Below are positions 3,823 to 40,849 of a stretch of 64,000 bases of DNA, piece after piece. The notes under the pieces are model-generated. The model had not been told where the DNA came from and made no database searches. It was given only the letters and a program-made list of their open reading frames with translations. Numbering within the stretch: position 1 is the stretch's first letter; every line of letters begins with the position of its first letter. The DNA lies in contig JAEUKH010000018.1 in NCBI GenBank assembly GCA_016792845.1, positions 74,984 through 138,983 on the forward strand. The letters are read 5' to 3'. The position numbers were made by a program, and so were the translations under genes. This DNA is from Myxococcales bacterium. Its GTDB lineage: Bacteria > Myxococcota_A > Polyangia > Polyangiales > Ga0077539.

Positions 3823-3961
3823 ATCCGCTCGGCACTACAAGCCTTGTGCCAGGCGAAACCAAAGCAAATTCAGCGCTTTGGCACGGCACACTCTGACACA
3901 CGCGGAATTCCGCGCAGGCCGCTTGCGGTTTTGGCGCGACGGCCCCACGCAAGGCCGCTGC

Positions 3962-4703
<742 letters not shown>

Positions 4704-4714
<11 letters not shown>

Positions 4715-22345: not shown

Positions 22346-23281
22346 ATGCCCACCCCCACCGACCTCGCGGCCGACATTGTTCGCCTGAAAAAAGAACGCA
22401 ACGCGGTGCTCCTCGCGCACTACTACGTCGACGGCGAGGTGCAAGACGTCGCTGATTTTGTAGGCGATTCGTTGCAGCTCTCGCAGGCCGCGCAGAAGAC
22501 CCAGGCCGACGTGATCGTCTTCGCGGGGGTTCACTTCATGGCCGAGACGGCCAAGATCTTGAACCCGAGCCGCAAGGTGGTCTTGCCCGACCTCGACGCG
22601 GGCTGCTCGCTCGCCGAGGGCTGCCCGGGCGACAAATTCGCGGCCTTCACCGCGCGCCACCCCGACCACTACGTGCTCTCGTACATCAACTGCTCGGCCG
22701 AGGTGAAGGCGCTCTCAGACTGCATCGTCACCAGCTCGAACGCCGAGAAGATCGTGCGAAGTGTGCCCGAAGGGCGGCCCATCATCTTCGCCCCTGACAA
22801 GAACCTCGGGGCCTACCTCGCCCGCAAGACGGGCCGCGACATGCTGATGTGGCGCGGCAGCTGCATCGTCCACGAGACCTTCTCAGAGCGGAAGATCATC
22901 GCCCTCCAGACCCGGCACCCCGACGCCGAGCTCATCGCGCACCCCGAGTGCGAGCCCGCGATCCTGGCGCACGCCCGCTTCATCGGCTCGACCAGCGCGC
23001 TCTTGAAATACACCCAGACCGCCGCGGCCAGGCGCTTCATCGTGGCCACCGAGACGGGCATCCTTCACCAGATGAAGAAATCGTCGCCCGACAAAGAGTT
23101 CATCGCCGCGCCCCCCGACGCGAACTGCGCCTGCAACGACTGCCCGTTCATGAAGAAGAACAGCCTCGAAGCCGTGCACCGCGCGCTCGAAACGCTCGAG
23201 CCCGAGCTCACCCTCGACGAGGGGCTCCGCGTGAAGGCCCTTCGCCCCATCGAGCGGATGCTGGAGCTCTCAGCGAGCTGA
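22346..23281 (+). CDS. nadA: Quinolinate synthase NadA
   Basis: '[42 protein letters not shown]' and '[11 protein letters not shown]' Fe-S cysteines. ATG at 22346 follows a low-complexity 5' extension. Confidence 0.9.
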
Positions 23282-23848
23282 GCCGCGCACGCCCCGGGCG
23301 CTGGCCTCGACCACGGCCCGCTCGGGGTTCGCGATGACCTCGCGCCCCACCAGGCGCCCCTCGCCCGCGGCCTCTGCCCCCGCCTCGACCGCCGCCTCGA
23401 CGTCAGAGAGCGCGCCGGTCAGCACGACGTAGCCCTTGCCCCCGATGCCCCGCGCGAGGTGCATGTCGACCAGGCTCACGGCGGCACACTTCAGCGCCGC
23501 ATCGGCCGCGCGGATGGTGGCCGCGAGGGTCTCAAGCTCGAGCACGCCGACCGAGCCCTCGGGGCGCGAGCGCACGAGGCCCTCGCAGAGCGCCCGCATC
23601 ACCGCCTCGTGGGCGTACGCGAGGTAGGTGTGGTCGATGCGCGAGGCGTCGCTCACGGTGATGGCCGCGTCGAGCGCTTCTTCGATCTCGGCCTCGCCGC
23701 CGGCGAAGGCGATCCAGTAGCGGCCCGGGGTGATCGGCTCGGCGTAGAGCACCGTGACCGGGCTGCGCTTGTCGAGCGCATCGAGCACGAGGTACCCCCT
23801 CGCAATCGACGCAATCTCTACAATCGCCAAGGCCGGCCCGTCGCTCAC
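23270..23848 (-). CDS. Bacterial microcompartment shell protein, tandem BMC-domain type (BMC-T)
   Basis: Two PF00936-like halves: '[26 protein letters not shown]...[21 protein letters not shown]' and '[28 protein letters not shown]...[28 protein letters not shown]'. Compare PduA 'GDVGAVKAATDAGAAAA'. Confidence 0.75.
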
Positions 23849-27097: not shown

Positions 27098-28102
27098 TCA
27101 AGCGACTTTCGCCCCGCCCTTTCGGAGCGTCTCGACCCCCAACATCACCCACGCCGGCGCGAGCACCGCGAAGAGCCCCGCGAAGATGCGGAGCTCGTTC
27201 AAGTTGCCCACCTTGAGCATCGCCACAAACCACAGCGGGCAGAGCCACACCGCGCGGCGCGTGAAGCGATCTCGCAGCCCCGAGAGCCCCCCAAGGAGCG
27301 GCACCCACAGCGCGCCGAACACACCCAGAAGCCGCACCGCGAAGGCCGGCGAGGCGAGCGCCCTGAGGTTGTCGTCGAGGTGCTCCTCGTAGAGCCCCTC
27401 GCCGTGACCGCGGTAGTGCCAGGCCAGCGCGAGCTTGACCGCCACCCAGGCGAGGGCCATCACCGTCGGCGGCACGAGGAGCCGACGCGGAGGCGTGTCG
27501 CTCGGGCGCGTCACCACCCACAAGACCGCCAAAAACGCGCTGCTCTCTTTCACCAGCGTCGCCGCGACGAAGGCCGGGTAGAAGGCCCGCCACCGCTCGG
27601 CCCGCAAGAGCATCATGCAGCCGAAGAGGCACGCCATCTCGGGGAGATCCCACGGCAGGTAGATCACCCGGCGCTGCCCCATGGCCTCGCCGAGCTGCGC
27701 GAAAGAGAACGGCATCACCCAAAGCACCAGCGGCAAGACCACCAGCGAGAAGCGCCGCGCGGCGTCGCGGGGGATCGTTTCTGAGTGTGACTCAAGAAGT
27801 GTCTCGACGTGCCGAGAGAACATCAGCCCGAGGGCCGCCACCGAGAGGCCGTCGAGGCACCCGAAGGCCGCCCGCGGGCTCAGCCCGAGCGCCACGAGGC
27901 CGCGCCCGAGCCACACCACCCCGATGCGGTATTGAAAGGGCGTCGGCGCGGTGCCGTCGAGGAGCGCCCGGCGCCCCACCACCGGCCACTCGAAGCTCAT
28001 GGCGTCACGCATGAACACCACAAACAAGGCCATCAAGACCAAGAGCGCGGCCCGCAACACCGCCACACGATCGGGCCGCCACCCTCTGACGAGGTCATTC
28101 AT
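27098..28102 (-). CDS. Polytopic integral membrane protein, unknown family
   Basis: Continuous hydrophobic helices. Start MNDLVRG at 28102. Confidence 0.55.
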   Translation of the reverse strand: MNDLVRGWRPDRVAVLRAALLVLMALFVVFMRDAMSFEWPVVGRRALLDGTAPTPFQYRIGVVWLGRGLVALGLSPRAAFGCLDGLSVAALGLMFSRHVETLLESHSETIPRDAARRFSLVVLPLVLWVMPFSFAQLGEAMGQRRVIYLPWDLPEMACLFGCMMLLRAERWRAFYPAFVAATLVKESSAFLAVLWVVTRPSDTPPRRLLVPPTVMALAWVAVKLALAWHYRGHGEGLYEEHLDDNLRALASPAFAVRLLGVFGALWVPLLGGLSGLRDRFTRRAVWLCPLWFVAMLKVGNLNELRIFAGLFAVLAPAWVMLGVETLRKGGAKVA

Positions 28103-28181
28103 CGCAGCGGTCGATTCAACACCGTTTCGGGCCTAGGCCGCGCTGCAAAGCGACCGCGGCGCGGTGTAGTCTCGGCGCCCC

Positions 28182-29402
28182 GTGAAGCCGCTCGACCCCG
28201 CCGTGCTTGAGTTCTGGTTCGACTACACCTGCCCCTACGCGTACCTCGCGAGCGTCGCGGTGTCGGGGCTCGCGGCGCGCACCGGGCGCACCCTGCGCTG
28301 GCGCCCGATGCTGCTCGGCGGGGTGTTCCGCGCCCTCGACGTGCCGCAGCGCCTCTTCGCCACCGTGGGCCCGGCGAAGGCCGCCCACACCGCCCGCGAC
28401 CTCGAACGTCAGGCCGCCCTCCTCGGCGTCGGGTTGGGCTTCCCCGCCGAGCACCCGCAGCGCTCGGTCGAGGCCCTCAGGGTGACCCTCGCCACGGGCT
28501 GCGACCCGCGGGTCATCGCAGGCTTCTTCGCGCGGTACTGGGTCGACCGGGCCCCCATCTCGACCCCCGAAGGCGTCACCGCCGTGCTCGAAGGCGCCGG
28601 GTACGGCCCCGCCGAGGTCGCCCGATACCGCGAGGCCGCCGAGGCGCCCGAGGCCCGCGAGGCCCTGAGGGCCGCCACCGACGAGGCCATCGCCCTCGGC
28701 ATCTTCGGCGCGCCGGCCTTCCGTCACGATGACGCTTCCATCTACTGGGGCGCCGACCGCATGATCTTGCTCGAACCGCGACCCGACCCGACACCTCACC
28801 CGAGCCCCCGCACCATGCCCCACACCCTCGAAGTCTTTTTCGATTTCTCGTCACCCTACGCGTACCTCGGGCAAACCCAGGCCGAGGCCCTCGCGGCCCG
28901 CACCGGCGCGACCCTCGTGTGGCGCCCCATCCTCCTCGGCGGGCTCTTCAAAGCCATCGGCCAAGCCATGGTGCCCATGCAGACCTGGAGCGCCGCGAAG
29001 CAACAGCACACCCTCGTCGACATGGGCCGGTGGGCCGCGCACTGGCAGGTGCCCTTCCGCTTCCCTGACAACTTCCCGTTCAACTCGGTCAAGGCGCTGC
29101 GCGTGTGGCTGGCGCTGCCCGAGGCGCGACGCGACGCCTTCCGTCAGGCCGCGTACAACGCCGCGTGGGCCGACAACCGCGACCTCACCAGCGACGCCGT
29201 CCTCGCCGACCTCATCGGCGACGACGCTGAGGCCATCCTCGCGCGCACCCAAGACGCCGACATCAAACAACAGCTCATCGACAGCACCCAAGACGCTGTC
29301 GCCCGCGGCGTCTTCGGGGCCCCCACCTGGATCGTCGACAAGACCGAGCTCTTCTGGGGCCAAGACCGCCTCCCCTTGGTCGAACGCGCCCTCGCGGGCT
29401 GA
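28182..29402 (+). CDS. Tandem-duplicated DsbA-like thioredoxin-fold protein (2-hydroxychromene-2-carboxylate isomerase / FrnE family, two domains)
   Basis: Two homologous halves, each starting 'LEFWFDYTCPYAYLA' / 'LEVFFDFSSPYAYLG' and ending 'IFGAPAF..DD...WGADR' / 'VFGAPTWIVDKTELFWGQDR'. Confidence 0.8.
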   Translation: MKPLDPAVLEFWFDYTCPYAYLASVAVSGLAARTGRTLRWRPMLLGGVFRALDVPQRLFATVGPAKAAHTARDLERQAALLGVGLGFPAEHPQRSVEALRVTLATGCDPRVIAGFFARYWVDRAPISTPEGVTAVLEGAGYGPAEVARYREAAEAPEAREALRAATDEAIALGIFGAPAFRHDDASIYWGADRMILLEPRPDPTPHPSPRTMPHTLEVFFDFSSPYAYLGQTQAEALAARTGATLVWRPILLGGLFKAIGQAMVPMQTWSAAKQQHTLVDMGRWAAHWQVPFRFPDNFPFNSVKALRVWLALPEARRDAFRQAAYNAAWADNRDLTSDAVLADLIGDDAEAILARTQDADIKQQLIDSTQDAVARGVFGAPTWIVDKTELFWGQDRLPLVERALAG

Positions 29403-29420
29403 GCGCCACCGGGGCCGGGC

Positions 29421-32291
29421 GTGCACTTCGAACACCCCCTCGCCCTCGCCCTGCTCGCGCTCGCCCTCGGCCTCACCTGGGCCTCGGCGACGAGCCCCCT
29501 CAGCCCCCTCCGGCGCTTCTCGCGCGGCCGTCGGTACGCGCTCCTGGTCGCGCAGACCCTCTGCCTCGGCGCCCTCGCGCTGGCGCTGAGCGAGCCGAGC
29601 CTCCGTCACACCCGACACCCACGCGCCGTGCTCCTCGTGCTCGACCGCTCGCGCTCGACCGATCACGTCGAGGGCCTCGCGACGCGGCTCCCGGTCTGGC
29701 TCCGCGAAGCCACCCGCGGCGCCCGCCCCGGCGATCGCCTCGGCCTCGTCGAGTTCGCCGCCACCGCCCACACCACCCTCGCGCCCGGCCCGGTGATCGA
29801 AGACCAGCCGCCGCCGGTCGGTGCGCTGACCCAGTCGCGCGACGCGAGCGCCCTCCGCGACGCGCTCCTGCACGCCCTCGGCGCGCTCCCGCACGACGCC
29901 GAAGGCCGCCTCGTGCTCCTCAGCGACGGCGACGAGACCCACGGCAGCGCCCTCGACGCCGCCACCCTGGCCGCCGCGGCGGGCGTCCCGGTCGACGTGC
30001 TCCCGCTCCTCCGACCGCCGCGCCGCGACGTGGCCGCGCGTCGGCTCCGCGCCGTCGACCGGGTGAGCCCCGGGAGCCCCGTCGATCTGGCCTTCGTGCT
30101 CCACAGCGACGTGGCCGTCGGCGCCACGGTGACCCTCCGCCGCGACGGGCAACCCCTCGGTCGAGAGCACATCGCGCTCAGGCCCGGCGAAGAGGTGATC
30201 CACCTCCGTGACACGCCCCTCGAAGCGGGGCTCCATCGGTACGAGGCGCGGGTCGAGAGCGACATTCCTGAGTTAGACTCAGTCAGCGGCAACGAGGCCG
30301 CGTACGCCTTCGTGCGGGTCACCGGCGAGGCCCGGGCCCTCGTGGTGGCCGGGCGCGCCGCAGAGGGCGGCGGCGAGGCCCTCGCCGAGGCGCTCCGCAG
30401 GGCTGGCATCGTCACCGACCGGGTGGGCCCCGGTGAGGCCCCCGGGAGCCCCGGCGCGTGGGCCCGCTACGACCTCGTCGCCCTTGACGACGTGCGCGCC
30501 CGTGAGCTCGACCCCGCCGCGCGCGCCACCCTCGGAGAGGCCGTGCGCACCCTCGGGTTGGGGCTCCTCATGGCAGGCAGCGACCGCGCCTTCGGCCCCG
30601 GCGGTTGGGCCGGAACCCCCGTCGAGGCCGTGCTGCCGGTGACCCTCGACCTGCGCAATCATCGCACCCGCGGCGACGTGGCGTTGGTGATCGTCATCGA
30701 CCGCTCGGGCTCGATGGCCGAAGGCACCCGCGACGGCCGCTCGAAGCTCACCCTCGCCAACGAGGGCGCCGCGCGGGCCGCGGGGCTGCTTCACCCCACC
30801 GACCTCGTCGCCATCGCCCACGTCGACACCGAGGTCAGCTGGACCCTCCCCCTCCGCCGCGCCGACGACACCGAGACCATCACCCGCCGCGCGCGCGGCG
30901 CCGGCATCGGCGGCGGCGGGATCTTCACCGAGGTCGCCCTCGACGCCGCCTACGCGCTCTTGCGCACGCAGCGCGCCACGGTGCGCCACGTCTTGCTCCT
31001 CGCCGACGGCGACGACGCCGAGAACAGCGAGGCCTGCGCCCAGCGCGCGCGCCAGGCCGCCGCGACGAGCATCACCACCAGCGTGGTCGCCATCGGACGC
31101 GGCCACGACGAGCCCCACCTCGCCGCCATCGCCCGCGAAGGGCTCGGGCGGTACTACCTCACCGAAGACGCCCGCAGCCTGCCCGAGATCTTCACCGAAG
31201 ACACCGCGCTGAGCGCGCGAAACCCCCTCCGCGAGTCGCCCTTCGTGCCGCGCTTCGTGCGCGCCTCGACGCTCACCCGGGGCGTCGACCTCGGGCGCCT
31301 GCCGACCCTCGACGGCTACGTCGTCACCGAGCTCCGCCCCCGCGCCGAAGCCCTCGCCCTCGCCCTCGACGACGACCCATGGCTCGCGCGTTGGGAGGTC
31401 GGAGCCGGGCGCGCCGCGGCCCTCACGAGCGACCTCGACGGGCGCTGGAGCGCTGACTTCCTCCGCTGGCCAGGAAGCGGCCCCTTGATGGGCCAGCTCG
31501 GCCGCTGGCTCCTCCGGGGCGTGCGCGACCATGACCTCAGGGTGACCGCCCGCAGCGACGGCGCCGTCATCACCGTCGAGGCCGAGGCCGAGAGCGCCCT
31601 CGGCGGCTTCGACTCGACCCGCGAGCTCGAAGCCCACCTGCTCTCACCCGGAGGCGTCACCACCCGCGTGCCCCTCACGCCGACCGCCCCCGGCCGCTAC
31701 GACGCCCGCATCGACGCCGCCCGCCCGGGCACCTGGCTCGTCTCGGTGATCGACCCGAGCCGCGGCCTCGTCGGCGTCACCGGCGCCGAGGTCGTCTCCT
31801 CGGCCGAGCTCAACGCCCACCCCGGCAACGAAGCCCTCCTGGCGGCCATCGCCGACCGCACCCAGGGCGCCCTCAGGCGCGACCTCAACCGACTCTACGA
31901 CGGCCCGCGGCGGCCCTTCGTCACGCAGCGCCCGCTCAGCCCCGCGCTCCTCGCCCTCGCCCTCGCGGCGGCCCTCGTCGCAGCGACCCTGCGGCGCGTG
32001 CCCGAGGGCGCCCTCGCCCGGCTGCGGCGCCCCAAGACCGGCCCGGCGCCCATTCCTGAGTCTGACTCAGCGACCCCGCAAGGCGCCCTCCTCGACCGGG
32101 TGCGCGAAGCCCGACGCGGGCCATCCGCTGCGACGCCGGCTGCGCAGCCTGGGCGCACGCCGAGCGGCCCGGCCGAGGGCGCCGTGCAGCCCCCCGACAC
32201 GCCCGCGGGGCCGCCTCCTGAGGCCCCCAAAGGCCCGGCCGCGGGCCTCGACGCCCTGGTCGCCCAGAAGCGCGCCCGCCGTCAGGGGTGA
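29421..32291 (+). CDS. Large membrane-anchored VWA-domain protein (N-terminal double-TM anchor, BatA-like architecture)
   Basis: N-terminal two TM helices. Internal VWA MIDAS 'VALVIVIDRSGSMAEG'. ~950 aa. It contains two in-frame copies of the CTGAGT-N3-ACTCAG palindrome. Confidence 0.75.
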   Translation: MHFEHPLALALLALALGLTWASATSPLSPLRRFSRGRRYALLVAQTLCLGALALALSEPSLRHTRHPRAVLLVLDRSRSTDHVEGLATRLPVWLREATRGARPGDRLGLVEFAATAHTTLAPGPVIEDQPPPVGALTQSRDASALRDALLHALGALPHDAEGRLVLLSDGDETHGSALDAATLAAAAGVPVDVLPLLRPPRRDVAARRLRAVDRVSPGSPVDLAFVLHSDVAVGATVTLRRDGQPLGREHIALRPGEEVIHLRDTPLEAGLHRYEARVESDIPELDSVSGNEAAYAFVRVTGEARALVVAGRAAEGGGEALAEALRRAGIVTDRVGPGEAPGSPGAWARYDLVALDDVRARELDPAARATLGEAVRTLGLGLLMAGSDRAFGPGGWAGTPVEAVLPVTLDLRNHRTRGDVALVIVIDRSGSMAEGTRDGRSKLTLANEGAARAAGLLHPTDLVAIAHVDTEVSWTLPLRRADDTETITRRARGAGIGGGGIFTEVALDAAYALLRTQRATVRHVLLLADGDDAENSEACAQRARQAAATSITTSVVAIGRGHDEPHLAAIAREGLGRYYLTEDARSLPEIFTEDTALSARNPLRESPFVPRFVRASTLTRGVDLGRLPTLDGYVVTELRPRAEALALALDDDPWLARWEVGAGRAAALTSDLDGRWSADFLRWPGSGPLMGQLGRWLLRGVRDHDLRVTARSDGAVITVEAEAESALGGFDSTRELEAHLLSPGGVTTRVPLTPTAPGRYDARIDAARPGTWLVSVIDPSRGLVGVTGAEVVSSAELNAHPGNEALLAAIADRTQGALRRDLNRLYDGPRRPFVTQRPLSPALLALALAAALVAATLRRVPEGALARLRRPKTGPAPIPESDSATPQGALLDRVREARRGPSAATPAAQPGRTPSGPAEGAVQPPDTPAGPPPEAPKGPAAGLDALVAQKRARRQG
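30263..30282. repeat. Palindromic element copy a (cattcCTGAGTtaGACTCAG), inside the VWA gene, in frame (..DIPELDSVS..)
   Basis: Direct read. Family core CTGAGT-N3-ACTCAG. Confidence 0.7.
32051..32070. repeat. Palindromic element copy b (cattcCTGAGTCTGACTCAG), inside the VWA gene, in frame (..PIPESDSAT..)
   Basis: Direct read. Confidence 0.7.
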
Positions 32292-32322
32292 CGGAGCGCG
32301 GCCCATCGGGTAAAGACCAGCC

Positions 32323-33102
32323 ATGTTGCTGGTGATCGATGTGGGCAACACCAACACGGTGTTGGGGGTGTACGCCGACGGCGTCTTGCGCGAAGATTTT
32401 CGCATTGAGTCGGCCCGCGGCAAGACCGCCGACGAGTACGGGGTCTTGCTGAGGGCGATGCTCGAGCTGCGGGGCATCAAGGCCGCAGACATCACCGACA
32501 GCGCGTTGGCGAGCGTGGTCCCGGCGCTCACTGAGACCTTCGTGCGCACGGTGAAGCGAGCCTTCGGGCACGACCCCATGGTGGTCGGGCCGGGCATCCG
32601 CACCGGCATGCCGATCCTCTACGAGCAGCCCCGCGAGGTCGGGGCCGACCGCATCGTCAACGCGGTGGCCGCGTATGAGCGCGTGAAGTCGGGCCTGATC
32701 GTGGTCGATTTCGGCACCGCCACGACCTTCGACGTGGTCTCGCCCAAGGGCGAATACCTCGGCGGGGTCATCTCGCCGGGCATCCAGATCTCGGCCGACG
32801 CCTTGTTCTCTCGGGCCGCCAAGCTGCCCCGGGTCGAGATCGCGCGGCCCCAGAGGGTGCTCGGGCGCAACACCCAACACGCCATGCAGAGCGGCATCGT
32901 GCTCGGGTATGTGGGCCTCGTCGACGGCATCGTCGCGCGGCTCCAAGACGAGATGGGCTTCCCGTGCCGCGTGTTCGCCACCGGCGGCCTCGCGCGGCTC
33001 ATCGCGCCCGAGTCAAAGTGCATCGAGACCGTCGACGACAACCTCACCCTCGACGGGCTCCGCATCCTCTGGGAGCGCAACCGCGCGAACACCGCGGCGT
33101 GA
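32323..33102 (+). CDS. coaX: Type III pantothenate kinase CoaX
   Basis: 'MLLVIDVGNTNTVLGVY', 'GADRIVNAVAA', 'IVVDFGTATTFDVV' conserved blocks. Confidence 0.9.
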   Translation: MLLVIDVGNTNTVLGVYADGVLREDFRIESARGKTADEYGVLLRAMLELRGIKAADITDSALASVVPALTETFVRTVKRAFGHDPMVVGPGIRTGMPILYEQPREVGADRIVNAVAAYERVKSGLIVVDFGTATTFDVVSPKGEYLGGVISPGIQISADALFSRAAKLPRVEIARPQRVLGRNTQHAMQSGIVLGYVGLVDGIVARLQDEMGFPCRVFATGGLARLIAPESKCIETVDDNLTLDGLRILWERNRANTAA

Positions 33103-34091
33103 GGGCGCGGCTCGGCAGGCTCGTCGCCCTCGGCGCGCTGAGCCTCGTCGCCGCCGCGCTGGCCCTCCACGTAGGCGCGGCGCCGCTCTCGTGGGCCCGG
33201 GCGCTGCGCGACCCCCAGAGCTTCGACGCCGCCATCGCCGAGGCCCGGAGCGCCCGGGTCACCCTCGGATACGTCGCAGGCGGCGCCCTCGCCCTGGTGG
33301 GCGCGGCCTTCCAGGCCCTCTTTCGCAACCCCCTCGGCGACCCCTACGCCCTCGGCGTGAGCGGCGGCGCCGCGCTCGGAGCGACCCTCGCCGTGCTCGC
33401 CGGCGCCGCCGCCGCCCTCGTGCCCCTGGCGGCCTTCGTCGGCGCGCTCTGCGCGATGCTGGCGGTGCTGGTGACCGCGCGGGCCTCGGGGCGGGTGGGC
33501 GCAGAGGGGCTCCTCCTCGCAGGGCTCGTCTCGAACGCCATCACCAACGCGGCCCTCTCGTTTCTGCGGAGCCTCGTCTCGAACGGCCGCGCCCAGGAGA
33601 CCCTCTCGATCCTCCTAGGCGCCATCGCCGAGGAGCCCTGGGCCCGCGTCGGCCTCGTCTCGGTCTTCGCGGCCGTCGGCGCCCTCGCGCTGGTCAGCCT
33701 CGCCAAGCCGCTGAACCTCCTCGCCCACGGCCCCGACACCGCGGCGAGCCTCGGCGTGTCGGTGCCCAGGGTCGAGCTCGCGGTCTTTACGGCCAGCTCG
33801 CTCGTGGTCGCCGCCGTGGTCAGCGTGGTGGGCCTCGTGCCCTTTGTGGGGCTGATCGTGCCGCAGTACGCGCGGCGCTGGGTCGGGGCCGACCACAGGC
33901 TCCTCTTGCCCGCGAGCTTCTTCGCGGGCGCGACCTTGCTCGTCATCGCAGACACCGCCGCCCGGGCCCTGTTCACCTGGGTCGGGAGCGAGCCCCCGGT
34001 CGGCGCCCTCACGGCCCTCGTCGGCGGCCCGGTGTTTCTCACGATGTTGCGCAGACTGGGCGATTCGCGGCACGCTAGCGCCCCCCGATGA
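33099..34091 (+). CDS. FecCD-family ABC transporter permease (iron-siderophore/B12 type). GTG start overlaps the coaX stop (GTGA).
   Basis: Polytopic hydrophobic sequence with 'LGDPYALGVSGGAALGATLAVL' and 'GLVPFVGLIVPQYARRWVGADHR' typical of the BtuC/FecCD family. No ATPase or binding-protein gene lies adjacent. Confidence 0.8.
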   Translation: MRARLGRLVALGALSLVAAALALHVGAAPLSWARALRDPQSFDAAIAEARSARVTLGYVAGGALALVGAAFQALFRNPLGDPYALGVSGGAALGATLAVLAGAAAALVPLAAFVGALCAMLAVLVTARASGRVGAEGLLLAGLVSNAITNAALSFLRSLVSNGRAQETLSILLGAIAEEPWARVGLVSVFAAVGALALVSLAKPLNLLAHGPDTAASLGVSVPRVELAVFTASSLVVAAVVSVVGLVPFVGLIVPQYARRWVGADHRLLLPASFFAGATLLVIADTAARALFTWVGSEPPVGALTALVGGPVFLTMLRRLGDSRHASAPR

Positions 34092-34390
34092 GCACCCCCG
34101 AAGAGCAGGTGTTGGCCGACACCTTCAAGAACGTCCTCGCTGGCTTTGCAGGGCAGACCGTCGAGCGCCGCCTGCGCCTCCGGCTCCAAGAGCCGGGCGA
34201 CCATCAGCGCGACGAGGTCGCGATGTTTCGGCTGCTCCAGAAGGCGTGCCGCGAGTCGACGGAGCTCGCCGCCGCCCTCGAAGCCGCCGAGCTCGGAGCC
34301 GTCGCGAGCATGAACCCCAAGGGCGCCGACCCCCAGGTGGGCCGCCTCGTCAACGCCTTCAACCGCTTCGTCGAGGCGCACTGGCGCTGA
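34088..34390 (+). CDS. Small hypothetical protein (100 aa), translationally coupled to the permease (ATGA overlap)
   Basis: Start ATG overlaps the permease stop. Plausible globular composition. No family recognised. Confidence 0.4.
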   Translation: MSTPEEQVLADTFKNVLAGFAGQTVERRLRLRLQEPGDHQRDEVAMFRLLQKACRESTELAAALEAAELGAVASMNPKGADPQVGRLVNAFNRFVEAHWR

Positions 34391-34394
34391 GTGC

Positions 34395-34409
34395 CTGAGT
34401 CTGACTCAG
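34395..34409. repeat. Palindromic element copy c (CTGAGTCTGACTCAG), intergenic. It lies 5 nt after the small-ORF stop and 5 nt before the stop of the convergent Cys-rich lipoprotein gene.
   Basis: Direct read. Confidence 0.7.
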
Positions 34410-34413
34410 TTTG

Positions 34414-35058
34414 TCAGCGCGGGCACTGGGCGTGGGCCATCTCGCAAGCCTCGGGCGTCTGCGCGAGGCGGTCGCAGTGGGCGCCCTCGCAGTTGCAGCC
34501 TCCGACACCTTCGCAGCGCTGCCCGCGCCACGCGTACCCGAAGAAGGCCGGGCAAAGGCCCTCGCCGCGCGCGTCTTGCGGAGCGCACGCAGGGTCGCCC
34601 GCGTCGACCGACTGCGCGCAGGCCCCGCGCTGGCGGTACGGGCGCCCCGGGCAGCTGCCCGACGCCTGAAAGGTCTCGCCGTCGCACCCGCAATAGGTCG
34701 CCAGGTCTTCGGTGCACGCCCGCAGCGCAACGCAGCGCCACGCCACGCCGCAACCCTCGGCCCCGTCGCACATCTGCCCGTTCGGACACTCGGCGCTCGA
34801 CCGGCACGAGACCGTCGGCCCCGCGTCAACACACGCCAGCGCCGTGCACGCGAGGAGCCCCCCCTGACACGCGCAGCTGTTGCACCCGTCGGGAGACCCG
34901 CAGCGCTGCCCTTCGACGCACACATAGCCCCCCGGCCCCCTGCACACCGCGGCGTCGGCCGCCGCGTCACCCGTCGCGCCGCTGTCGGCCGCCCCGCCCG
35001 AGATCACCCCGCTGCACCCCAGCGTCGAGAGCCACACCCACAACATCGCGCGCTTCAT
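34414..35058 (-). CDS. Cysteine-rich secreted lipoprotein
   Basis: Signal peptide plus lipobox 'MLWVWLSTLGC' starting at ATG 35058. About 30 Cys in 190 aa. The upstream part of the track ORF is shadow. Confidence 0.55.
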   Translation of the reverse strand: MKRAMLWVWLSTLGCSGVISGGAADSGATGDAAADAAVCRGPGGYVCVEGQRCGSPDGCNSCACQGGLLACTALACVDAGPTVSCRSSAECPNGQMCDGAEGCGVAWRCVALRACTEDLATYCGCDGETFQASGSCPGRPYRQRGACAQSVDAGDPACAPQDARGEGLCPAFFGYAWRGQRCEGVGGCNCEGAHCDRLAQTPEACEMAHAQCPR

Positions 35059-35147
35059 CACCGTCTCACCTCGCCTCGTTGGCACAGCCTGGCCCATCTT
35101 CTTCGGGGCGCTGGGGTCACAATGAGAAGCGCGTGCCATCGGCCTCG

Positions 35148-35162
35148 CTGAGTCTGACTCAG
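35148..35162. promoter_or_regulatory. Palindromic element copy d (CTGAGTCTGACTCAG) in the divergent promoter region between the Cys-rich lipoprotein gene and the TetR gene, 55-70 bp upstream of the TetR ATG. Candidate operator.
   Basis: Direct read. Position is typical of a TetR autoregulatory operator. Confidence 0.5.
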
Positions 35163-35215
35163 GGGTGACGCCGACGCCTTGCGAAGGGGCCCCGAGGCCG
35201 CTACGGTGCGACGCC

Positions 35216-35857
35216 ATGGCAACGGGGGTTGGGCAAGGGCGAGGGCGTCTCGGGCGCCCCGGGCAGAGCGCGGCCACGCTGACCGCCGGCGCCTTCGCGC
35301 TGCTCGGCGAGGTGGGCGTGGCGGGGCTCACCATGCGCGCGGTGGCCGAGCGGGCAGGGGTGAGCGAGGCCGCGGTCTTTCACCATTTCGCGAACAAAGA
35401 GGCGCTCCTCTGGGCCCTCGCGGGCGAAGTCGAGCGGCGCGAGAGCGAGCACCTCATGGCGGCGGTGGCCGAGGCCGAAGGGGGCCCCGAGGCCCTCGCC
35501 GCGATGCTCAAGGCCATGGTTCACTTTTACCGCGAGGCGCCGACGCTCTTCGAGCTGCGGTACGGGCTGCGGCTCAGCTTCTGCGCCCGCCCCGAGGGGG
35601 CCAAGGCGGGTCGCCCCTCACCCCTCGCCAAGGCCCTCTTCGGGAGCCTTGAGGCCCGCTTCCACAGCGACACCCACCGCGTGCCGGGTCGTCTCAAGGC
35701 GCGGTCGCTCGTGCGCCTCGTTCACGCCTTGGCTTTGGGGCTCTGCCAGCAAGAGGCCCTCGATCGGGTCGAGGGGGCGACGGTCGCCGCCGAGCGCGAG
35801 GCCCGGCTCAGCGCGGCCCTCAAGGTGCTCGCATTGGCGCTCGGGTCACATTCCTGA
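35216..35857 (+). CDS. TetR-family transcriptional regulator
   Basis: HTH 'LTMRAVAERAGVSEAAVFHHFANKEALL'. ATG 35216 gives the typical ~17-aa tail before helix 1. A palindromic element lies 55-70 bp upstream and another overlaps its stop codon. Confidence 0.8.
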   Translation: MATGVGQGRGRLGRPGQSAATLTAGAFALLGEVGVAGLTMRAVAERAGVSEAAVFHHFANKEALLWALAGEVERRESEHLMAAVAEAEGGPEALAAMLKAMVHFYREAPTLFELRYGLRLSFCARPEGAKAGRPSPLAKALFGSLEARFHSDTHRVPGRLKARSLVRLVHALALGLCQQEALDRVEGATVAAEREARLSAALKVLALALGSHS

Positions 35858-35868
35858 GTCACACTCAC
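35854..35868. repeat. Degenerate palindromic element copy e (cattcCTGAGTCaCACTCAc) overlapping the TetR stop codon at the convergent TetR/uvrD junction
   Basis: Direct read. It shares the ATTCC 5' flank with copies a and b. Confidence 0.55.
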
Positions 35869-37892
35869 CCGCGGCGGGCGCGCAGGGCCTCCATGGCCTG
35901 GCGAAACGACTTCATCTGCGCGGCGATGTCTTGGGGCGCGAGGGGCGCCTGAGAGTCATACTGCACGGTCTCAAGGGTGCCCTCGGGGAGGCCCTCGAAC
36001 TTCAGAAAGCGCGACGGCGCGGTGGCCCGGGCGGGGCCGCGGCCTGAGCGGGTCTTGGCGCGCACGAGGTAGAGCTGCTCCTTCGCGCGGGTGACGCCGA
36101 CGTAGAAGAGCCTGCGCTCTTCGCCCGCGTCGATGGTGGCCAAGACGTCGGTGGCCTTGGGGCTGTCGGTGCGCGAATGGGGGATGATGCCCTCGTCGCA
36201 GCCGATGAAGAACACCGTGCCGAACTCGAGCCCCTTCGACCCGTGGAGGGTCGAGAGCGTCACCCGGTCGGTGTCTTCTTCTTCGTTCGAGCCGAAATTG
36301 AGCATCATGCGCGCGAGCACGGTGCTCGACTCGCCGACCCCGCGCGCCTCTGATTTCTCAAGGCTCTTGAAGAAGTAGTCGACGTTGCCCCAACGCTTGC
36401 CCGCGGCGATGGCGGTGGGCCCGGCGGCGATGATGTCTTCCTTCAGCTTGACCGCGACCGCCGTCTGCTGCGCCACGTCGTGGAGGGTGTTGTTCTTCTC
36501 AAGCGAGGCCCGGGCCCCGCGCACGATGCCCACGAACCCGCGAATCGACTCCTTGATCGACGGCGACAGGTCTTCGAGGATGTCTGCGCGCTCGCAGGCC
36601 GCGAAGAGCGAGATGCCACGCACGAGGGCGCTGCGCTCGAGCCGCGCGATGGTGACCTCGCCGATGCCGCGGGTTGGGTAGTTGATCACCCGACGCAGCG
36701 AGATCTCGTCTGAGGGGTGCACCGCGAGGCGGAGGTACGCGATGAGGTCTTTCACCTCGCGGCGCTCGTACACGCTCGTGCCGCCGATGAGGCGATAGGG
36801 GATGTTGGCCAGCCGCAGCGCCTCTTCGACGCCCCGCGAGAGGAGGTTCGAGCGATACAGCACCGCGATCTCGCGGCGCTTGTACCCGTCACGGAGGAGC
36901 TTCTGCGTCACCTCCATGACAAATTTGATCTCGCCCTCGTTCGAGTCACACTCGACGATTTTGCAGGGCTCGCCGCCCGGCTTGTCGGTGAAGAGGCGCT
37001 TGGGGTAAGCCCGAACCTGGCCCTCCATCACGGCGTTCGAGAGGTCGAGGATGGGCCGACGCGAGCGGTAGTTCTGTTCGAGCGCGAGGGTCTTGGCGCC
37101 CGGAAAGTGCTTGCCGAAATCGATGACGTTCGAGATGTCGGCGCCGCGCCAGCCGTAGATCGACTGGTCGTCGTCGCCCACGCAGAACACATTGCCGGCC
37201 TCGCCGACGAGCGATTTTACGAGCAAGAGCTGCGCGCGGTTGGTGTCTTGAAACTCGTCGACGAGCATGAACCGCACGCGGCGACGCCACGCCTCGCGGG
37301 CCGACGCGTCGTCGGTCAGGTGCTTGAGCGGCCAGAGGATCAGGTCGTCGAAATCGAGAGCCTTGAGCCGCTTGAGAGCCGCCTCATACCGAGGGAAGAC
37401 CCAGTCTGCCACCTCGTCGTACTCGTTGCCGCCGTCGATGACGAGCTCGGCCGGGGTGCACATGCAGTTCTTGGCGCCCGAGATGCGGGCCACGATGGCC
37501 GCCACGTCGAGGCGTTTGACGTCGCCCTTGTGGTCGCGCAGAAGCTCTTTGACGAGGCCCGAGCAGTCGGCGCCGTCGTACACGACGAAGGCCTCGCCGC
37601 GCGGCATTTCGCGGCGCACGATCTCGCCGCCGAGGGCGTGAAAGGTGCTGATCCAGACCTCTTTGGCGGGCGGCCCGACGAGGTGCTCGAGCCGCTCTCG
37701 CATCTCTTGAGAGGCCTTGTTCGTAAAGGTCACCGCGAAGATCGCCCGGGCCGGGACGCCCGACAAGATCAGCCGCTCCATGCGCTGGGTGATCACCCGG
37801 GTCTTGCCGCTCCCGGCGCCCGCGAGCACCAGAGCCGGGCCGGTGCCATGTTCGACCGCAGCCTTCTGCGCAGGGTTCAGTGGGATGCCCAT
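35865..37892 (-). CDS. UvrD/PcrA/Rep-family ATP-dependent DNA helicase
   Basis: Walker A 'AGAGSGKTRVITQR'. Motifs 'FVDEFQDTN', 'VGDDDQSIYGWRGA', 'TLHGSKGLEF', 'YVGVTRA'. ATG at 37892 follows an Arg-rich shadow. Confidence 0.9.
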   Translation of the reverse strand: MGIPLNPAQKAAVEHGTGPALVLAGAGSGKTRVITQRMERLILSGVPARAIFAVTFTNKASQEMRERLEHLVGPPAKEVWISTFHALGGEIVRREMPRGEAFVVYDGADCSGLVKELLRDHKGDVKRLDVAAIVARISGAKNCMCTPAELVIDGGNEYDEVADWVFPRYEAALKRLKALDFDDLILWPLKHLTDDASAREAWRRRVRFMLVDEFQDTNRAQLLLVKSLVGEAGNVFCVGDDDQSIYGWRGADISNVIDFGKHFPGAKTLALEQNYRSRRPILDLSNAVMEGQVRAYPKRLFTDKPGGEPCKIVECDSNEGEIKFVMEVTQKLLRDGYKRREIAVLYRSNLLSRGVEEALRLANIPYRLIGGTSVYERREVKDLIAYLRLAVHPSDEISLRRVINYPTRGIGEVTIARLERSALVRGISLFAACERADILEDLSPSIKESIRGFVGIVRGARASLEKNNTLHDVAQQTAVAVKLKEDIIAAGPTAIAAGKRWGNVDYFFKSLEKSEARGVGESSTVLARMMLNFGSNEEEDTDRVTLSTLHGSKGLEFGTVFFIGCDEGIIPHSRTDSPKATDVLATIDAGEERRLFYVGVTRAKEQLYLVRAKTRSGRGPARATAPSRFLKFEGLPEGTLETVQYDSQAPLAPQDIAAQMKSFRQAMEALRARRG

Positions 37893-38002
37893 CGTTGCCC
37901 CCGACGCCGCTACCCCGAGCCGCACCGAAGGTCGAGTTTTGTGACCGAGCGCACAGCCCCCCCTTTCGCGCCACCGCGACCTGTCGGTACCCTCTCGGGT
38001 GC

Positions 38003-39154
38003 GTGTACGCCCTCGCTCGGTCGGTCTGTGTCGTCTTCGCTGCGACCGCGATGACAGCCTGTTCGCTCGTGCGCGACCCGGCCCTGCCCGTCGTACGCGA
38101 CGCCCAGGCCGTCGCACCGCCACGCGACCAGGGCTCGGCTGAGTCAGACTCAGAAATTGCCGACCTCGGCCTCGACGCCCCCCTCGACGGCGGCTCCGAT
38201 GCGCCCCCCGACCTCGCGAACGACCTCGCGAACGACCTCCCGAACGATGCACCGGCTGACGCGCAGGCCGACACCCCGAGCAGCGACGCGGGCCTCGACG
38301 CTGACGTCCTGCCCCTCGATGCGCCCCGCGACACGGGCTTCGACATCACCGTCGCGCCCCCCGACGGCGGCTACGTCGTCAGGCTCGGAGACGCGAGCGC
38401 CGACTGCCCAGCGTTTGTGCCCCGCGACGCGACCGCGGCCGCGGCCATCCCCGCCGCCTGCGGCTTCAACGGCGACAGCGGCACCGTCTACCCCGCGCGC
38501 GGCGCCGCGGGGTACTGCAACGCCGACCCCGCGGCGGGGTGCCAGCCCTGCGCCGAGACGTGGCAGATCTTCGACGACCCCGTCGCCCTCACCACCGCCG
38601 CGCCGCTCGGCGGCTACGGCGACGGTTGCTTCGCGGCCGCGGCGCGCCCCCCCGACGTCACCCTCGGCGGCTGGAGCGCACTCTCGGGGTATCCGCTCTG
38701 TTACACGCGGAATTCGCGCATCGCCCCGGGCACCAGCTGCCAGCGGGTGGCCCAGAGGGTCTACTTTCACACGCGGCTCCATTTCGGGGCCCTGCGCCCC
38801 GACGAGAACGTCGAGGGCCTGATCGAATTCCTCTCGGGCCGCGTCGATGACGCGCTCTTCGCGACCTTCGTCTACCGCGACGGCGCGACGCTCAGCCCGC
38901 CGTCGCTCCGCATGTGGATCGAGACCAACTTCACTACCCCGTGCTCTGAAGAGGCCCAGCGTCAGACCGGCGGGTGCCGCGACACCCCCGATCGCCTCCG
39001 CCGTGTGGGTGCCCGCGTGCCCCTGCCGCCCGGCGCCACAGACCTCTACCTCACCCTCATCGACGCCTGCGAGGGCAACCAGGAGCTTCGGCATTTCGAG
39101 CTGCTCTATGCGGGTCGCGGCATGCCGCAGTGCCCCGCCGATCGCGATCGCTGA
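38003..39154 (+). CDS. Secreted hypothetical protein or lipoprotein: Asp/Ala/Pro-rich N-terminal region plus a Cys-containing C-terminal domain
   Basis: GTG 38003 gives the signal-like 'VYALARSVCVVFAATAMTAC'. Divergent from uvrD across a 110-bp gap. It contains one in-frame palindromic element copy at 38139-38153. Confidence 0.5.
   Translation: MYALARSVCVVFAATAMTACSLVRDPALPVVRDAQAVAPPRDQGSAESDSEIADLGLDAPLDGGSDAPPDLANDLANDLPNDAPADAQADTPSSDAGLDADVLPLDAPRDTGFDITVAPPDGGYVVRLGDASADCPAFVPRDATAAAAIPAACGFNGDSGTVYPARGAAGYCNADPAAGCQPCAETWQIFDDPVALTTAAPLGGYGDGCFAAAARPPDVTLGGWSALSGYPLCYTRNSRIAPGTSCQRVAQRVYFHTRLHFGALRPDENVEGLIEFLSGRVDDALFATFVYRDGATLSPPSLRMWIETNFTTPCSEEAQRQTGGCRDTPDRLRRVGARVPLPPGATDLYLTLIDACEGNQELRHFELLYAGRGMPQCPADRDR
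38139..38153. repeat. Palindromic element copy f (CTGAGTCAGACTCAG, inverted orientation), in frame inside the secreted-protein gene (..SAESDSEI..)
   Basis: Direct read. Its reverse complement carries the AATTTC flank, resembling CATTCC. Confidence 0.7.
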
Positions 39155-39295: not shown

Positions 39296-40849
39296 ATGGT
39301 TCACCCACGTCATCTCTTGATCGCCGCGCTCGCGGCGAGCGCCCTCGGTTGCGGTGGTTCGGTGGTCACCGGTCGTGACAGCGACGCGGCCGCGGGCGAT
39401 GTGCCGACCCAGGTCGACACGGGCTCGTTCATCGACGCTGGCGCTGACGTGGGCCCCGCGATCGACACGGGCTTCGACGCAGGCCAGCCCGACACCCGGG
39501 TGCCGCGCTGCGGTGACGGCATCCTCGACCCCGGCGAGAGCTGCGACGACGCCAACAACCGCGACGGCGACATGTGCTCGGCGATGTGCCGCTTCGAGGC
39601 GCGCTGCGGCGACAACATGGTGCAATCGTCGTTGGGCGAGCTCTGCGACGACGGCAACAATTTCTCGGGCGACGGCTGCCGCTCAGACTGCCGCTCGACC
39701 GAGCGCTGCGGCAACATGATCGTCGACACCGCGGTGGGCGAGGTCTGTGACGGCACCCCCAACTGCGGCCCAGACTGCCGCACCATCGTGTCGTGCGGCA
39801 ACGGCCGCGTCGAGCCCGGCGAGCAGTGCGACGACGGCAACACCACCCGGTGGGACGGTTGCGGCCCCGATTGTCGCCGCGAGCAGGCCCTCGGCATCAA
39901 CCGCCTCTCGATCGTGACGAGCGGGCAGATGCTGGGCTGCGATTTCTCGGGCGACGGCCGCCCCGACAACGCCTTCGGCGGCGCCCTCGGGCCCGCGGGC
40001 GGCATCCTGAACTCGTTCATCTCGAGCGCCGTCACCAACGGCCAGGTGCTCATTCAGCTCGGCTTTTTGAACCTCACCGACCCGCTCGGGCAGAACCTCC
40101 CGAACGCGCGGGTGGGCTGGGTGCTCGGCGCCGACGCCGACAACGACGTGGCCAACAACGGCATCCCCGGCAACCCGCGCTTCGTGCAGCGCGCCTCGCT
40201 GAACGCGATGACCCTCTTGCCGCAGGCCTCGTTCCAGAGCACGAGCTTGATGGGGCGCCTCGCGGGCGGGCCCGAAGACATTCGCCTCGCGCTCGGGGCT
40301 GGGCCCATCGGTGACTTCAACTTCCGTGTGCTCCGCGGGCGCATCAGCGGCACCCTCGTGGCCGACACCACCAACGAGCGTATCACCGAGCTGCGCTCGG
40401 GCGTGCTCTGCGGGGCCATCCCCGCGAACGACCTCGCGATGCTGCAAAACCCCGCGGGCATGCTGCCCGGCGGCGGCGGCGGCGGCATGATGGCCATGTC
40501 GAGCTTCCTCGAACTCCTCGTCGGCGGCCAGCGCGTGCTCGTGGTCAACATCGGCCCCCAGCAGCCCGACATCGACCTCGACGGCGACGGGCTCGAGCGC
40601 TACGAAGCCACCATGGGCTCGGGCAACCGCCCGCCCGAGATCACGGCCTGCATCGACGGCAACGGCACGCGCATCCCGGGCCGCCAGTGCCAGCTCGACC
40701 CCCGCATGGCCGACGGCTTCTCAGCGGCCTTCCAGCTCGGCGCCGAATGGATCACCCTCCGCGGCATCACCGACCGCACCACCGGCGGCGGCGGCATGGG
40801 GGGCGGCCGGGCCGACGCCGGGGCGGCCCCGGGCGACACCGGCCCCTGA
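39296..40849 (+). CDS. Lipoprotein with four Myxococcus-type cysteine-rich repeats and a C-terminal domain of unknown function
   Basis: Lipobox 'ALGCGGS'. Four repeats of the pattern CG(D/N)G..(D/E).GE.CDDGN...GDGC..DC. Gly-rich C-terminal tail. Confidence 0.75.
   Translation: MVHPRHLLIAALAASALGCGGSVVTGRDSDAAAGDVPTQVDTGSFIDAGADVGPAIDTGFDAGQPDTRVPRCGDGILDPGESCDDANNRDGDMCSAMCRFEARCGDNMVQSSLGELCDDGNNFSGDGCRSDCRSTERCGNMIVDTAVGEVCDGTPNCGPDCRTIVSCGNGRVEPGEQCDDGNTTRWDGCGPDCRREQALGINRLSIVTSGQMLGCDFSGDGRPDNAFGGALGPAGGILNSFISSAVTNGQVLIQLGFLNLTDPLGQNLPNARVGWVLGADADNDVANNGIPGNPRFVQRASLNAMTLLPQASFQSTSLMGRLAGGPEDIRLALGAGPIGDFNFRVLRGRISGTLVADTTNERITELRSGVLCGAIPANDLAMLQNPAGMLPGGGGGGMMAMSSFLELLVGGQRVLVVNIGPQQPDIDLDGDGLERYEATMGSGNRPPEITACIDGNGTRIPGRQCQLDPRMADGFSAAFQLGAEWITLRGITDRTTGGGGMGGGRADAGAAPGDTGP

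Follow-up and report, generated by a model that had tools for sequence, protein, structure and literature searches.

A family of 15-bp palindromes, CTGAGTCTGACTCAG, is present and clustered in the window (the whole 64-kb stretch of DNA that was analyzed), with seven perfect or near-perfect copies grouped around a gene for an orphan TetR-family regulator of an uncultured myxobacterium. The explanation that we prefer, at even odds (a probability of roughly 0.5), is that the palindromes are a multicopy putative operator set of the TetR whose gene lies at the center of the cluster. Binding by this protein and the roles of the copies outside promoters are inferred.

Distribution of the palindromes

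The core of the family is a perfect 7-N1-7 palindrome, CTGAGTC-T-GACTCAG. CTGAGT-N3-ACTCAG had five exact matches (at 30268, 32056, 34395, 35148, and 38139), versus 0.00 expected from 100 dinucleotide shuffles. Allowing 2 mismatches to CTGAGTCTGACTCAG added two more, at 27781 (CTGAGTGTGACTCAA) and 35854 (CTGAGTCACACTCAC), for a family of four perfect 15-mers, one copy with 1 mismatch, and two copies with 2 mismatches (Table 1). With the center base left free and up to 2 mismatches, 7 sites were found versus 0.23 expected by chance. Matches with 3 and 4 mismatches (9 versus 2.1 expected, and 20 versus 21) were at background level, and thus the family is sharply bounded at seven. The seven copies span 27,781 to 38,153, which is 10.4 kb of the window, a clustering with a probability of about 1e-4 under uniform placement. 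No copy with 2 or fewer mismatches was found in the remaining 54 kb.

The clustered palindromes reported in an earlier note on this DNA are therefore real. However, its count of seven clear copies plus a weak one should be seven in all, two of them with 2 mismatches; the hexamer arms that it ascribed to every copy are exact at five, the copies at 27781 and 35854 having 2 mismatches to the 15-mer; and the weak copy, placed at 27771 to 27786, is actually at 27781 to 27795. The same note described an ATTCC flank on four copies and reversed on a fifth. The flank, as CATTCC, was found on three (30268, 32056, and 35854). The reverse-orientation flank at 38139 is ATTTC, the flank at 27781 is GTTTC, and CATTCC is missing from D and E, the two perfect intergenic copies.

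Every copy was recovered in independent assemblies of five sequencing runs, and thus the copies are not an assembly artifact. A 99.7%-identical strain had single-nucleotide polymorphisms on either side of copy D (at 34392, 3 bp ahead of it, and at 34410, 1 bp beyond it) and none within any copy, a comparison of low power. An outer 6-bp inverted repeat, CGCTGA/TCAGCG, encloses copy D, and an extra half-site, CTGAGT, is found at 34387 to 34392.

Table 1. Palindrome copies and surrounding features, in window coordinates
Feature	Position	Strand	Match and flank	Context
Copy A, CTGAGTGTGACTCAA	27781..27795		2 mismatches; T-rich flanks either side	Within 334-aa membrane-protein gene (minus strand), in frame L-E-S-H-S-E; 387 bp upstream of DSBA gene start
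Copy B, CTGAGTTAGACTCAG	30268..30282		1 mismatch; CATTCC	VWA gene, in frame IPELDS
Copy C	32056..32070		Perfect 15-mer; CATTCC	VWA gene, in frame IPESDS; 253 bp upstream of coaX start
Copy D	34395..34409		Perfect 15-mer	Fills 23-bp gap between convergent genes (100-aa gene stop, 34388-34390; Cys-rich gene stop, 34414-34416)
Copy E	35148..35162		Perfect 15-mer	Divergent intergenic region; candidate primary operator
Copy F, CTGAGTCACACTCAC	35854..35868		2 mismatches; CATTCC	Between convergent gene ends; TGA (35855-35857) is the TetR stop codon, TCA (35865-35867) the helicase stop codon on the opposite strand
Copy G	38139..38153		Perfect 15-mer, reverse orientation; AAAT	Lipoprotein gene, codons ~46-50, in frame AESDSEI; 247 bp upstream of helicase start codon
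Same-strand gene string	28182..34390	+		Double-DSBA protein, VWA protein, type III pantothenate kinase, FecCD/BtuC-type permease, 100-aa protein; copies B and C internal; ends at copy D
Cys-rich putative lipoprotein, 214 aa	34414..35058	-		Divergent from TetR gene; matches no family
Divergent intergenic region, 157 bp	35059..35215			Holds copy E
TetR-family regulator, 213 aa, orphan	35216..35857	+		Pfam TetR_N
PcrA/Rep/UvrD-type helicase, 675 aa	35865..37892	-		Converges on TetR gene at copy F
Putative lipoprotein gene	38003..39154	+		GTG start; lipobox ...AMTAC; copy G in N-terminal acidic linker

Copies within coding sequence

Four of the seven copies (A, B, C, and G) are in coding sequence. 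The in-frame readings previously given for the two VWA copies and for the copy at 38139 were borne out, but these are not the only three because the copy at 27781 is also in frame. The coding copies contain rare codons (ATT, 9%; CCT, 8%; TCT, 5%; TCA, 6%; TTA, 4 of 17,368). Copy B includes ATT, CCT, TCA, and one of those four TTA codons. Sixteen VWA orthologues revealed no indel at copy B; the motif replaces the ancestral codons one for one, with about 8 substitutions in 18 nt, of which one, CCC to CCT, is synonymous. The rare codons and the lack of an indel relative to the orthologues suggest a DNA-level constraint on the coding copies. Judged from these alignments, the coding copies arose in place, by changes to existing codons, and are not insertions. 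They occupy poorly conserved protein segments.

The TetR regulator and its divergent partner

The assignment of the central regulator to the TetR family in the earlier note was correct, but the strand that it implied was not. The predicted fold is canonical and all-helical (pLDDT 79, pTM 0.75), with Tet repressors as the top PDB matches, and in sequence the helix-turn-helix is most like those of TetR classes A, B, and D. Residues 1 to 16 form a disordered, Arg/Gly-rich N-terminal arm. The modeled regulator has a TetR fold together with a divergent-gene context. The copy at 35148 is in the divergent intergenic region, as was claimed, and is the only substantial (7-bp-arm) inverted repeat within it. 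TetR regulators nearly always repress a divergent neighbor when fewer than 200 bp separate the two (PMC3511530), and the 157-bp spacing here fits this rule, which favors the operator explanation. The Cys-rich lipoprotein gene is the most likely direct target of the TetR. A possible promoter, TTGCGA-N17-TACGGT, was read by eye just upstream of the TetR ATG, where a consensus scan made no call.

The arrangement of the other copies also favors an operator set. Copies D and F, at 34395 and 35854, do lie between convergent gene ends, as previously noted. They flank E at 753 bp and 706 bp, and these three most closely spaced copies exactly delimit the TetR gene and its divergent partner and divide one from the other. 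Together with the excess of copies over expectation, the clean gap to background, and the clustering, these features argue for the operator explanation, as do the TetR_N domain, the fold, the relationship of the helix-turn-helix to the Tet classes, the Arg-rich arm, the DNA-level constraint on the coding copies, and the odd length of the dyad, which is shared with tetO (PMC8966031).

The locus resembles the Tn10-type TetR-tetO system in having a divergent repressor/target pair with a short stretch of DNA between the genes, a dyad of odd length centered on a base pair, and a repressor whose helix-turn-helix and overall fold are closest to those of Tet repressors. However, the two operator sequences are not related, the recognition helix is EAAVFHH rather than QPTLYWH, the divergent gene encodes a Cys-rich lipoprotein rather than an efflux pump, and seven sites, at least five of them outside promoters, are spread over 10 kb in place of two adjacent operators. 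The TetR scored 44 bits against the NCBIfam TetR equivalog, below the cutoff of 265. Classical TetR regulators have 1 to 3 operators in a single intergenic region. Here just one copy of the seven, E, is in a clear promoter position, the canonical operator position, which weakens the operator explanation. The same result undercuts the regulon of lipoprotein, ABC permease, and Lon proposed earlier, in which the "Lon" is in fact a PcrA/Rep/UvrD-type helicase. Other observations that count against an operator set are that no TetR orthologue was found outside its own species, that synteny of the locus was not found in relatives, and that the consensus scan found no sigma-70-like promoter overlapping copy E. 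The asymmetric CATTCC flank of B, C, and F, missing at D and E, is a further weakness because a symmetric dimer would not need it. In SimR, an Arg-rich N-terminal arm of a kind that is common in the family binds the DNA minor groove beyond the core operator (PMC3241653). The TetR described here has a similar disordered extension before the helix-turn-helix, and by analogy with SimR and other "TFR arm" regulators such an arm could make minor-groove contacts just beyond the core dyad, a possible explanation of the A/T-rich ATTYC flank, although the flank here is one-sided on most copies and lacking at D and E.

Alternative explanations

A tentative alternative, clearly less probable than an operator set, is that the palindromes are sites for another DNA-binding protein encoded elsewhere, with the TetR gene a bystander. 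The protein might be a global regulator or a chromosome-organizing or landmark protein like those of the ParB-parS, SlmA-SBS, and RefZ-RBM systems. At least five of the seven copies are within genes or at their 3' ends, the sites are densely arrayed (one per 0.7 to 2.5 kb over 10 kb), and the coding sites are kept against codon preference, which is typical of parS-type or landmark sites. Clusters of parS similarly comprise about 7 to 10 short palindromes, many intragenic, within roughly 10 kb. However, the motif is unlike the conserved parS sequence, no parAB is nearby, the 64-kb window has no ParA/ParB, SMC-loader, or replication gene and no origin-like features, and the densest part of the array is centered exactly on the TetR gene pair, whose divergent promoter region itself holds a copy. 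GTGAGT, the half-site of SlmA, is similar to CTGAGT. SlmA and RefZ are TetR-family proteins that use palindromic chromosomal sites, mostly not promoter operators, for nontranscriptional roles (PMC6657595), but those sites span hundreds of kilobases to megabases rather than 10 kb, and the TetR is far below the equivalog cutoffs for SlmA (23 versus 120 bits) and RefZ (20.5 versus 180 bits).

It is unlikely that the copies are a small selfish or neutral repeat without a protein partner of its own, which short-patch gene conversion or templated mutation spread locally and which is tolerated where proteins are unconstrained. The asymmetric 6-nt CATTCC on B, C, and F and the 22 of 25 nt common to C and G look copied rather than convergent, the coding copies occupy poorly conserved segments of proteins, and confinement to about 10 kb would be expected of local conversion. 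Yet the common flank is just 5 to 6 nt and absent from D and E, length is unchanged at copy B, there is no mobile-element hallmark and no transposase or RAYT nearby, and copying does not account for D, E, and F falling precisely at the boundaries of the TetR gene pair. REP, MITE, and Rickettsia palindromic elements are likewise palindromic and multicopy and can sit in frame in coding sequence, but the element here is far shorter (15 to 20 bp), is not an insertion, and is not dispersed across the window. The MITE/REP reading, with its in-frame insertion, is not supported, given that copy B shows no indel and that the element lacks an extended stem, terminal repeats, and a target duplication; of the two interpretations in the earlier note, the operator branch is the better supported. 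There is very little likelihood of an RNA-level hairpin, whether a bidirectional terminator or a signal for processing or stability. D and F are exactly between convergent genes, and D is within a longer interrupted stem (z-score of about -2.3, both strands), but 6 of 8 folded contexts were no more stable than shuffles (z of -1.4 to +1.2), and four copies are in coding sequence and one in a promoter region. A terminator is not supported because the scan was negative at every copy and the stem is only 6 to 7 bp without a U-tract. Equally improbable is a methylation- or restriction-related target (GANTC) or an HspR-type HAIR heat-shock operator. Every perfect copy has a pair of GANTC sites (GAGTC and GACTC), and GANTC is underrepresented in the window (95 versus about 168 expected), but the degenerate copies keep the TGAGT/ACTCA arms rather than the GANTC pair, with one site each retained in A, B, and F, and the window contains no methyltransferase. 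The HAIR half-site is TGAGT/ACTCA, and the likeness pointed out earlier holds to that extent. However, HAIR spacing is N7 rather than N3, the locus lacks chaperone and protease genes, and hspR, dnaK, clpB, and lon are absent. This reading is not supported.

If the palindromes are an operator set of the orphan TetR, the copies would be high-affinity sites at which a dimer sets one helix-turn-helix on each 7-bp arm of CTGAGTC-N-GACTCAG, an odd-length dyad like tetO, and the disordered arm may contact the minor groove of the ATTYC flank present on five copies. Bound at copy E, it would repress its own gene and the Cys-rich lipoprotein gene until a ligand freed it. The adjacency of the TetR gene could be coincidence if many copies exist elsewhere in the genome. 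The array is unusual in that most copies are inside or at the ends of genes, not in promoters. Copies D and F, exactly at the 3' ends of the two genes, and A, B, C, and G, in neighboring coding sequence, would be auxiliary sites; they may act as roadblocks, insulate against read-through from the convergent neighbors, or form a local repressor sink or loop.

Numbers and distribution of the palindromes

Five exact occurrences of CTGAGT-N3-ACTCAG are present in the window (copies B, C, D, E, and G; see the table), and none appeared in dinucleotide-preserving shuffles. Allowing up to two mismatches to CTGAGTCTGACTCAG recovered two further sites, copies A and F. When the core was written as the motif string CTGAGTCNGACTCAG, with ≤2 mismatches allowed and the central base free, seven sites were found versus 0.23 expected. 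Matches with three or four mismatches were at background level, and the family therefore has exactly seven members within the window. The earlier note had counted seven copies plus a weak one. A multi-copy family does exist, but its total is seven with the central base free and ≤2 mismatches, and the weak copy, although real, is located at 27781 rather than where it had been placed. A perfect 7-N1-7 palindrome, CTGAGTC-T-GACTCAG, describes the core best, and copies C, D, E, and G match it without deviation; copy B has one mismatch, and copies A and F have two each. The ATTCC flanks that had been described are present but had been miscounted: three copies have ATTCC, one has a reverse-oriented ATTTC, and one has GTTTC. 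Similarity among the copies stops 5-6 nt outside the core, and no second repeated motif accompanying the copies was found.

The seven copies span 27,781-38,153 (P ~1e-4 for uniform placement of seven sites in such a span). The remaining 54 kb of the window contained no copy, nor did the 2.4 kb past its left end. Assemblies made independently from five sequencing runs, including one of a 99.7%-identical strain, also contain the copies. Runs in which this species occurs include SRR10555725, SRR12425352/53/64, and SRR29844875/76. The exact 15-mer had at least 120 matches in genome contigs, and those listed were isolated singles in unrelated taxa. A 19-mer, ATTYCTGAGTCWGACTCAG, had 15 isolated matches in a metagenome collection that does not include this species, on unrelated, mostly low-GC contigs and with no clusters. 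These isolated matches are at chance level. All 69 matches of the 15-mer in a viral collection were also isolated singles, and there is no sign of a phage or mobile origin. A literature search with the motif yielded nothing but unrelated eukaryotic primer or AP-1 matches. The palindrome pattern is clean and statistically strong, and its source is one uncultured lineage.

Placement of the copies in and between genes

The window DNA of this uncultured myxobacterium is ~71% G+C. Genes were mapped from codon-position G+C, gene calls on matching contigs, and family searches, the last of which identified as a PcrA/Rep/UvrD-type helicase the gene that the earlier note had taken for Lon. No partition, replication, or methyltransferase genes were found in the 64 kb.

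Genes and palindrome copies of the locus, in window coordinates
Feature	Position	Strand
334-aa membrane protein	27098-28102	-
Copy A	27781	
Double-DSBA protein	28182-29402	+
VWA protein	29421-32291	+
Copy B	30268	
Copy C	32056	
Type III pantothenate kinase	32323-33102	+
FecCD/BtuC-type permease	33099-34091	+
100-aa protein	34088-34390	+
Copy D	34395	
214-aa Cys-rich putative lipoprotein	34414-35058	-
Copy E	35148	
TetR-family regulator (TetR)	35216-35857	+
Copy F	35854	
PcrA/Rep/UvrD-type helicase	35865-37892	-
Lipoprotein	38003-39154	+
Copy G	38139	

Copy E is inside the 157-bp divergent region (35059-35215) between the gene for the Cys-rich putative lipoprotein and the TetR gene, and is the sole substantial (7-bp-arm) inverted repeat of that region, which bears out the earlier placement of a site there. 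Copy D occupies the 23-bp gap between the convergent genes for the 100-aa and Cys-rich proteins, and copy F overlaps two stop codons, those of the TetR gene (TGA) and of the convergent helicase gene (TCA). Thus, D, E, and F exactly bracket and separate the divergent pair of TetR and Cys-rich protein genes, with D and F lying 753 and 706 bp from E. The remaining copies, A, B, C, and G, are within coding sequence. A promoter scan of 27-39.5 kb found no sigma-70-like promoter; a TTGCGA-N17-TACGGT promoter candidate, read by eye, lies downstream of copy E.

Copy D is enclosed by an outer 6-bp inverted repeat, CGCTGA...TCAGCG (34381-34419), and has an additional direct half-site, CTGAGT, ahead of it at 34387-34392. 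The strain SNPs closest to any copy, at 34392 and 34410, both fall inside these flanking elements. The same 99.7%-identical strain has a 1.7-kb insertion (3254-4998 of its matching contig, L001) between window positions 28113 and 28120, separating the genes for the 334-aa membrane protein and the DSBA protein. The insertion, ~330 bp from copy A, contains an AbiEii-like protein (faint Pfam match), a small ORF, and no palindrome copies. The DSBA protein is 406 aa long with two DSBA-like domains, an internal duplication that is also detectable as a DNA repeat, D19 (28206 versus 28827). Downstream of the lipoprotein gene, the gene at 39296-40849 encodes myxobacterial cysteine-rich acidic repeats (TIGR02232/DUF4215), and Cys-rich secreted proteins and lipoproteins are abundant around it. 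Elsewhere in the window, a lone gene for a BMC-domain (bacterial microcompartment shell) protein (23270-23848) adjoins nadA, with no other microcompartment genes visible nearby. A 15-nt direct repeat, CAGTGTTCAACTCAG, occurs at 1169-1183 and 1203-1217, 34 bp apart, within the short convergent intergenic region between a Tex-like gene and an O-methyltransferase gene.

An NCBI MAG listed as 'Myxococcales bacterium' has an identical VWA protein, and the nearest relatives are Polyangiales MAGs, at ~55% identity. In three relatives, at 52-57% identity, the VWA locus had neither synteny nor a palindrome copy. In an alignment of 16 VWA orthologues, copy C is within a variable linker and copy B is at a gap-free position. 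At copy B the ancestral-type codons (GAC/ACC)-CCC-GAC-GAC-GAC-(GCG/CAG) are replaced one for one by ATT-CCT-GAG-TTA-GAC-TCA, a change of ~8 substitutions of which one, CCC to CCT, is synonymous. The genome strongly disfavours the codons of the coding copies (ATT, 9% of Ile codons; CCT, 8% of Pro; TCT and TCA, 5% and 6% of Ser), and TTA accounts for 4 of 17,368 codons, one of the four being in copy B. One-for-one replacement with disfavoured codons indicates that the motif overwrote coding sequence already in place and did so under a constraint at the DNA level. A MITE- or REP-type insertion is thereby excluded, and the in-frame insertion that the earlier note had offered as one of its two readings fails on the same alignment. 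The overwriting is compatible with selection for a protein-binding site or with short-patch copying. All four coding copies share the frame GAG-TCN-NAC-TCA (E-S-x-S), one of the two frames left open by the internal TGA of the palindrome; with one frame of three thus closed, this agreement has P ~0.125 and is not significant.

Codon usage in the window (41 genes, 17,368 codons) is odd for a high-GC genome, with TCC making up 1.7% of Ser codons (15 versus 445 TCG). Among Leu codons, CTC accounts for 63% and CTG for 20%.

TetR as the candidate binder and alternative readings

Among the one-component regulators of bacteria, the TetR family is the largest. The most likely explanation for the seven palindromes, to which we assign a probability of about 0.5, is that they are a multi-copy candidate operator set of the orphan TetR. 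Copy E would serve as the operator for autoregulation and for the divergent gene, and the remaining six copies may be auxiliary sites that function in roadblocking, insulation of convergent junctions, or looping or as a repressor sink.

The assignment of the 213-aa product to the TetR family was sound (Pfam TetR_N, E 3e-15). Its HTH matches PDB Tet repressors (phmmer, E 5e-9 over the HTH) and is nearest in sequence to TetR classes A, B, and D. The AlphaFold2 model (pLDDT 78.8, pTM 0.75) has 9 helices, an all-helical C-terminal domain, and the canonical TetR fold, and its best structural matches in Foldseek were TetR(G/B/D), EthR2, FasR, and similar proteins, all with probability 1.00. No orthologues were found outside the species, the best other match having 44% identity over half of the protein. 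The tet operator is an odd-length dyad (PMC8966031), as is the palindrome here. The recognition helix of this TetR differs from those of the Tet repressors, as would fit an operator of different sequence. An empirical rule holds that a TetR regulator represses its divergent neighbour when the two are <200 bp apart (PMC3511530), and the 157-bp intergenic distance of the TetR gene agrees with it. Residues 1-16 of TetR (MATGVGQGRGRLGRPG) are Arg/Gly-rich and predicted to be disordered. In SimR, an N-terminal arm of this kind contacts the minor groove immediately beyond the core operator, and arms like it are widespread among family members (PMC3241653). By analogy, arm-minor-groove contact might explain the A/T-rich flank that five copies carry. 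However, the flank is one-sided and is absent from copies D and E, and the arm idea does not account for either.

It is unlikely, but conceivable, that a different protein binds the palindromes or that they form a chromosomal landmark, much as in the SlmA and RefZ systems, whose proteins are of the TetR family (PMC6657595). The TetR here was rejected as an equivalog of either, with NCBIfam scores of 23.3 bits for SlmA (cut-off, 120) and 20.5 bits for RefZ (cut-off, 180). Myxobacteria are not known to have SlmA or Noc. A ParB-parS cluster was also rejected; the motif is unrelated to parS, and none of the ~41 window genes has a ParA/ParB domain. The likeness to the HspR HAIR element proposed in the earlier note is limited to the half-site, which does match; the spacing in all copies is N3, not N7. 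As an HspR-HAIR operator the palindrome was rejected, with the CTTGAGT-N7-ACTCAAG spacing absent and no GAGT-N(1-9)-ACTC of other spacing in the window, and family searches found no dnaK, clpB, lon, or MerR-type gene in the locus. A LexA-box reading, an idea taken from the adjoining helicase, was dropped on comparison with the Myxococcus LexA box.

We consider it improbable that the palindromes are a locally copied micro-repeat. A mobile palindromic repeat (REP/MITE/RPE-like) was rejected, as there is no extended stable stem-loop, terminal inverted repeat, or target-site duplication. There is very little chance of an RNA-level role: the palindrome contexts fold no better than shuffles, except for copy D with its longer stem. 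An RNA hairpin or intrinsic terminator was rejected; the stem of the palindrome itself is 6-7 bp, half A/T, and without a U-tract, and a terminator scan found no terminators at any copy. A role in methylation appears just as remote. Each perfect copy has two GANTC sites, but the degenerate copies keep the arms, not the GANTC pair. GANTC is ~1.8-fold scarce in the window (95 observed versus 168 expected from block shuffles), and the palindrome copies supply ~11 of the 95.

A bolder form of the TetR operator explanation, which we hold to be quite improbable, is that the array is a ~10-kb nucleoprotein domain rather than a set of promoter operators. The orphan TetR, on seven high-affinity dyads selected into coding DNA against codon preference, would then form a landmark, an insulator, or a looped micro-domain, which would make the array a TetR-based counterpart of ParB-parS or RefZ-RBM.

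Implications for repressor-operator organization

Repressor-operator logic is familiar. What is not is an array of perfect operators that extends over 10 kb, with most of them inside or next to coding sequence and at a rare-codon cost. If TetR binds all seven sites, the locus would be an unusually clear natural case of a one-component repressor with high-affinity operators mostly inside genes and at gene ends, kept at the price of very rare codons. Roles beyond promoter occlusion would be indicated, with roadblocking, convergent-gene insulation, looping, and local repressor concentration as candidates. In practical terms, TetR and its sites would add a new orthogonal repressor-operator pair whose geometry resembles that of tetO. 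Should the sites be those of a different protein, their cluster would represent an uncharacterised chromosomal landmark of Polyangia-type myxobacteria.
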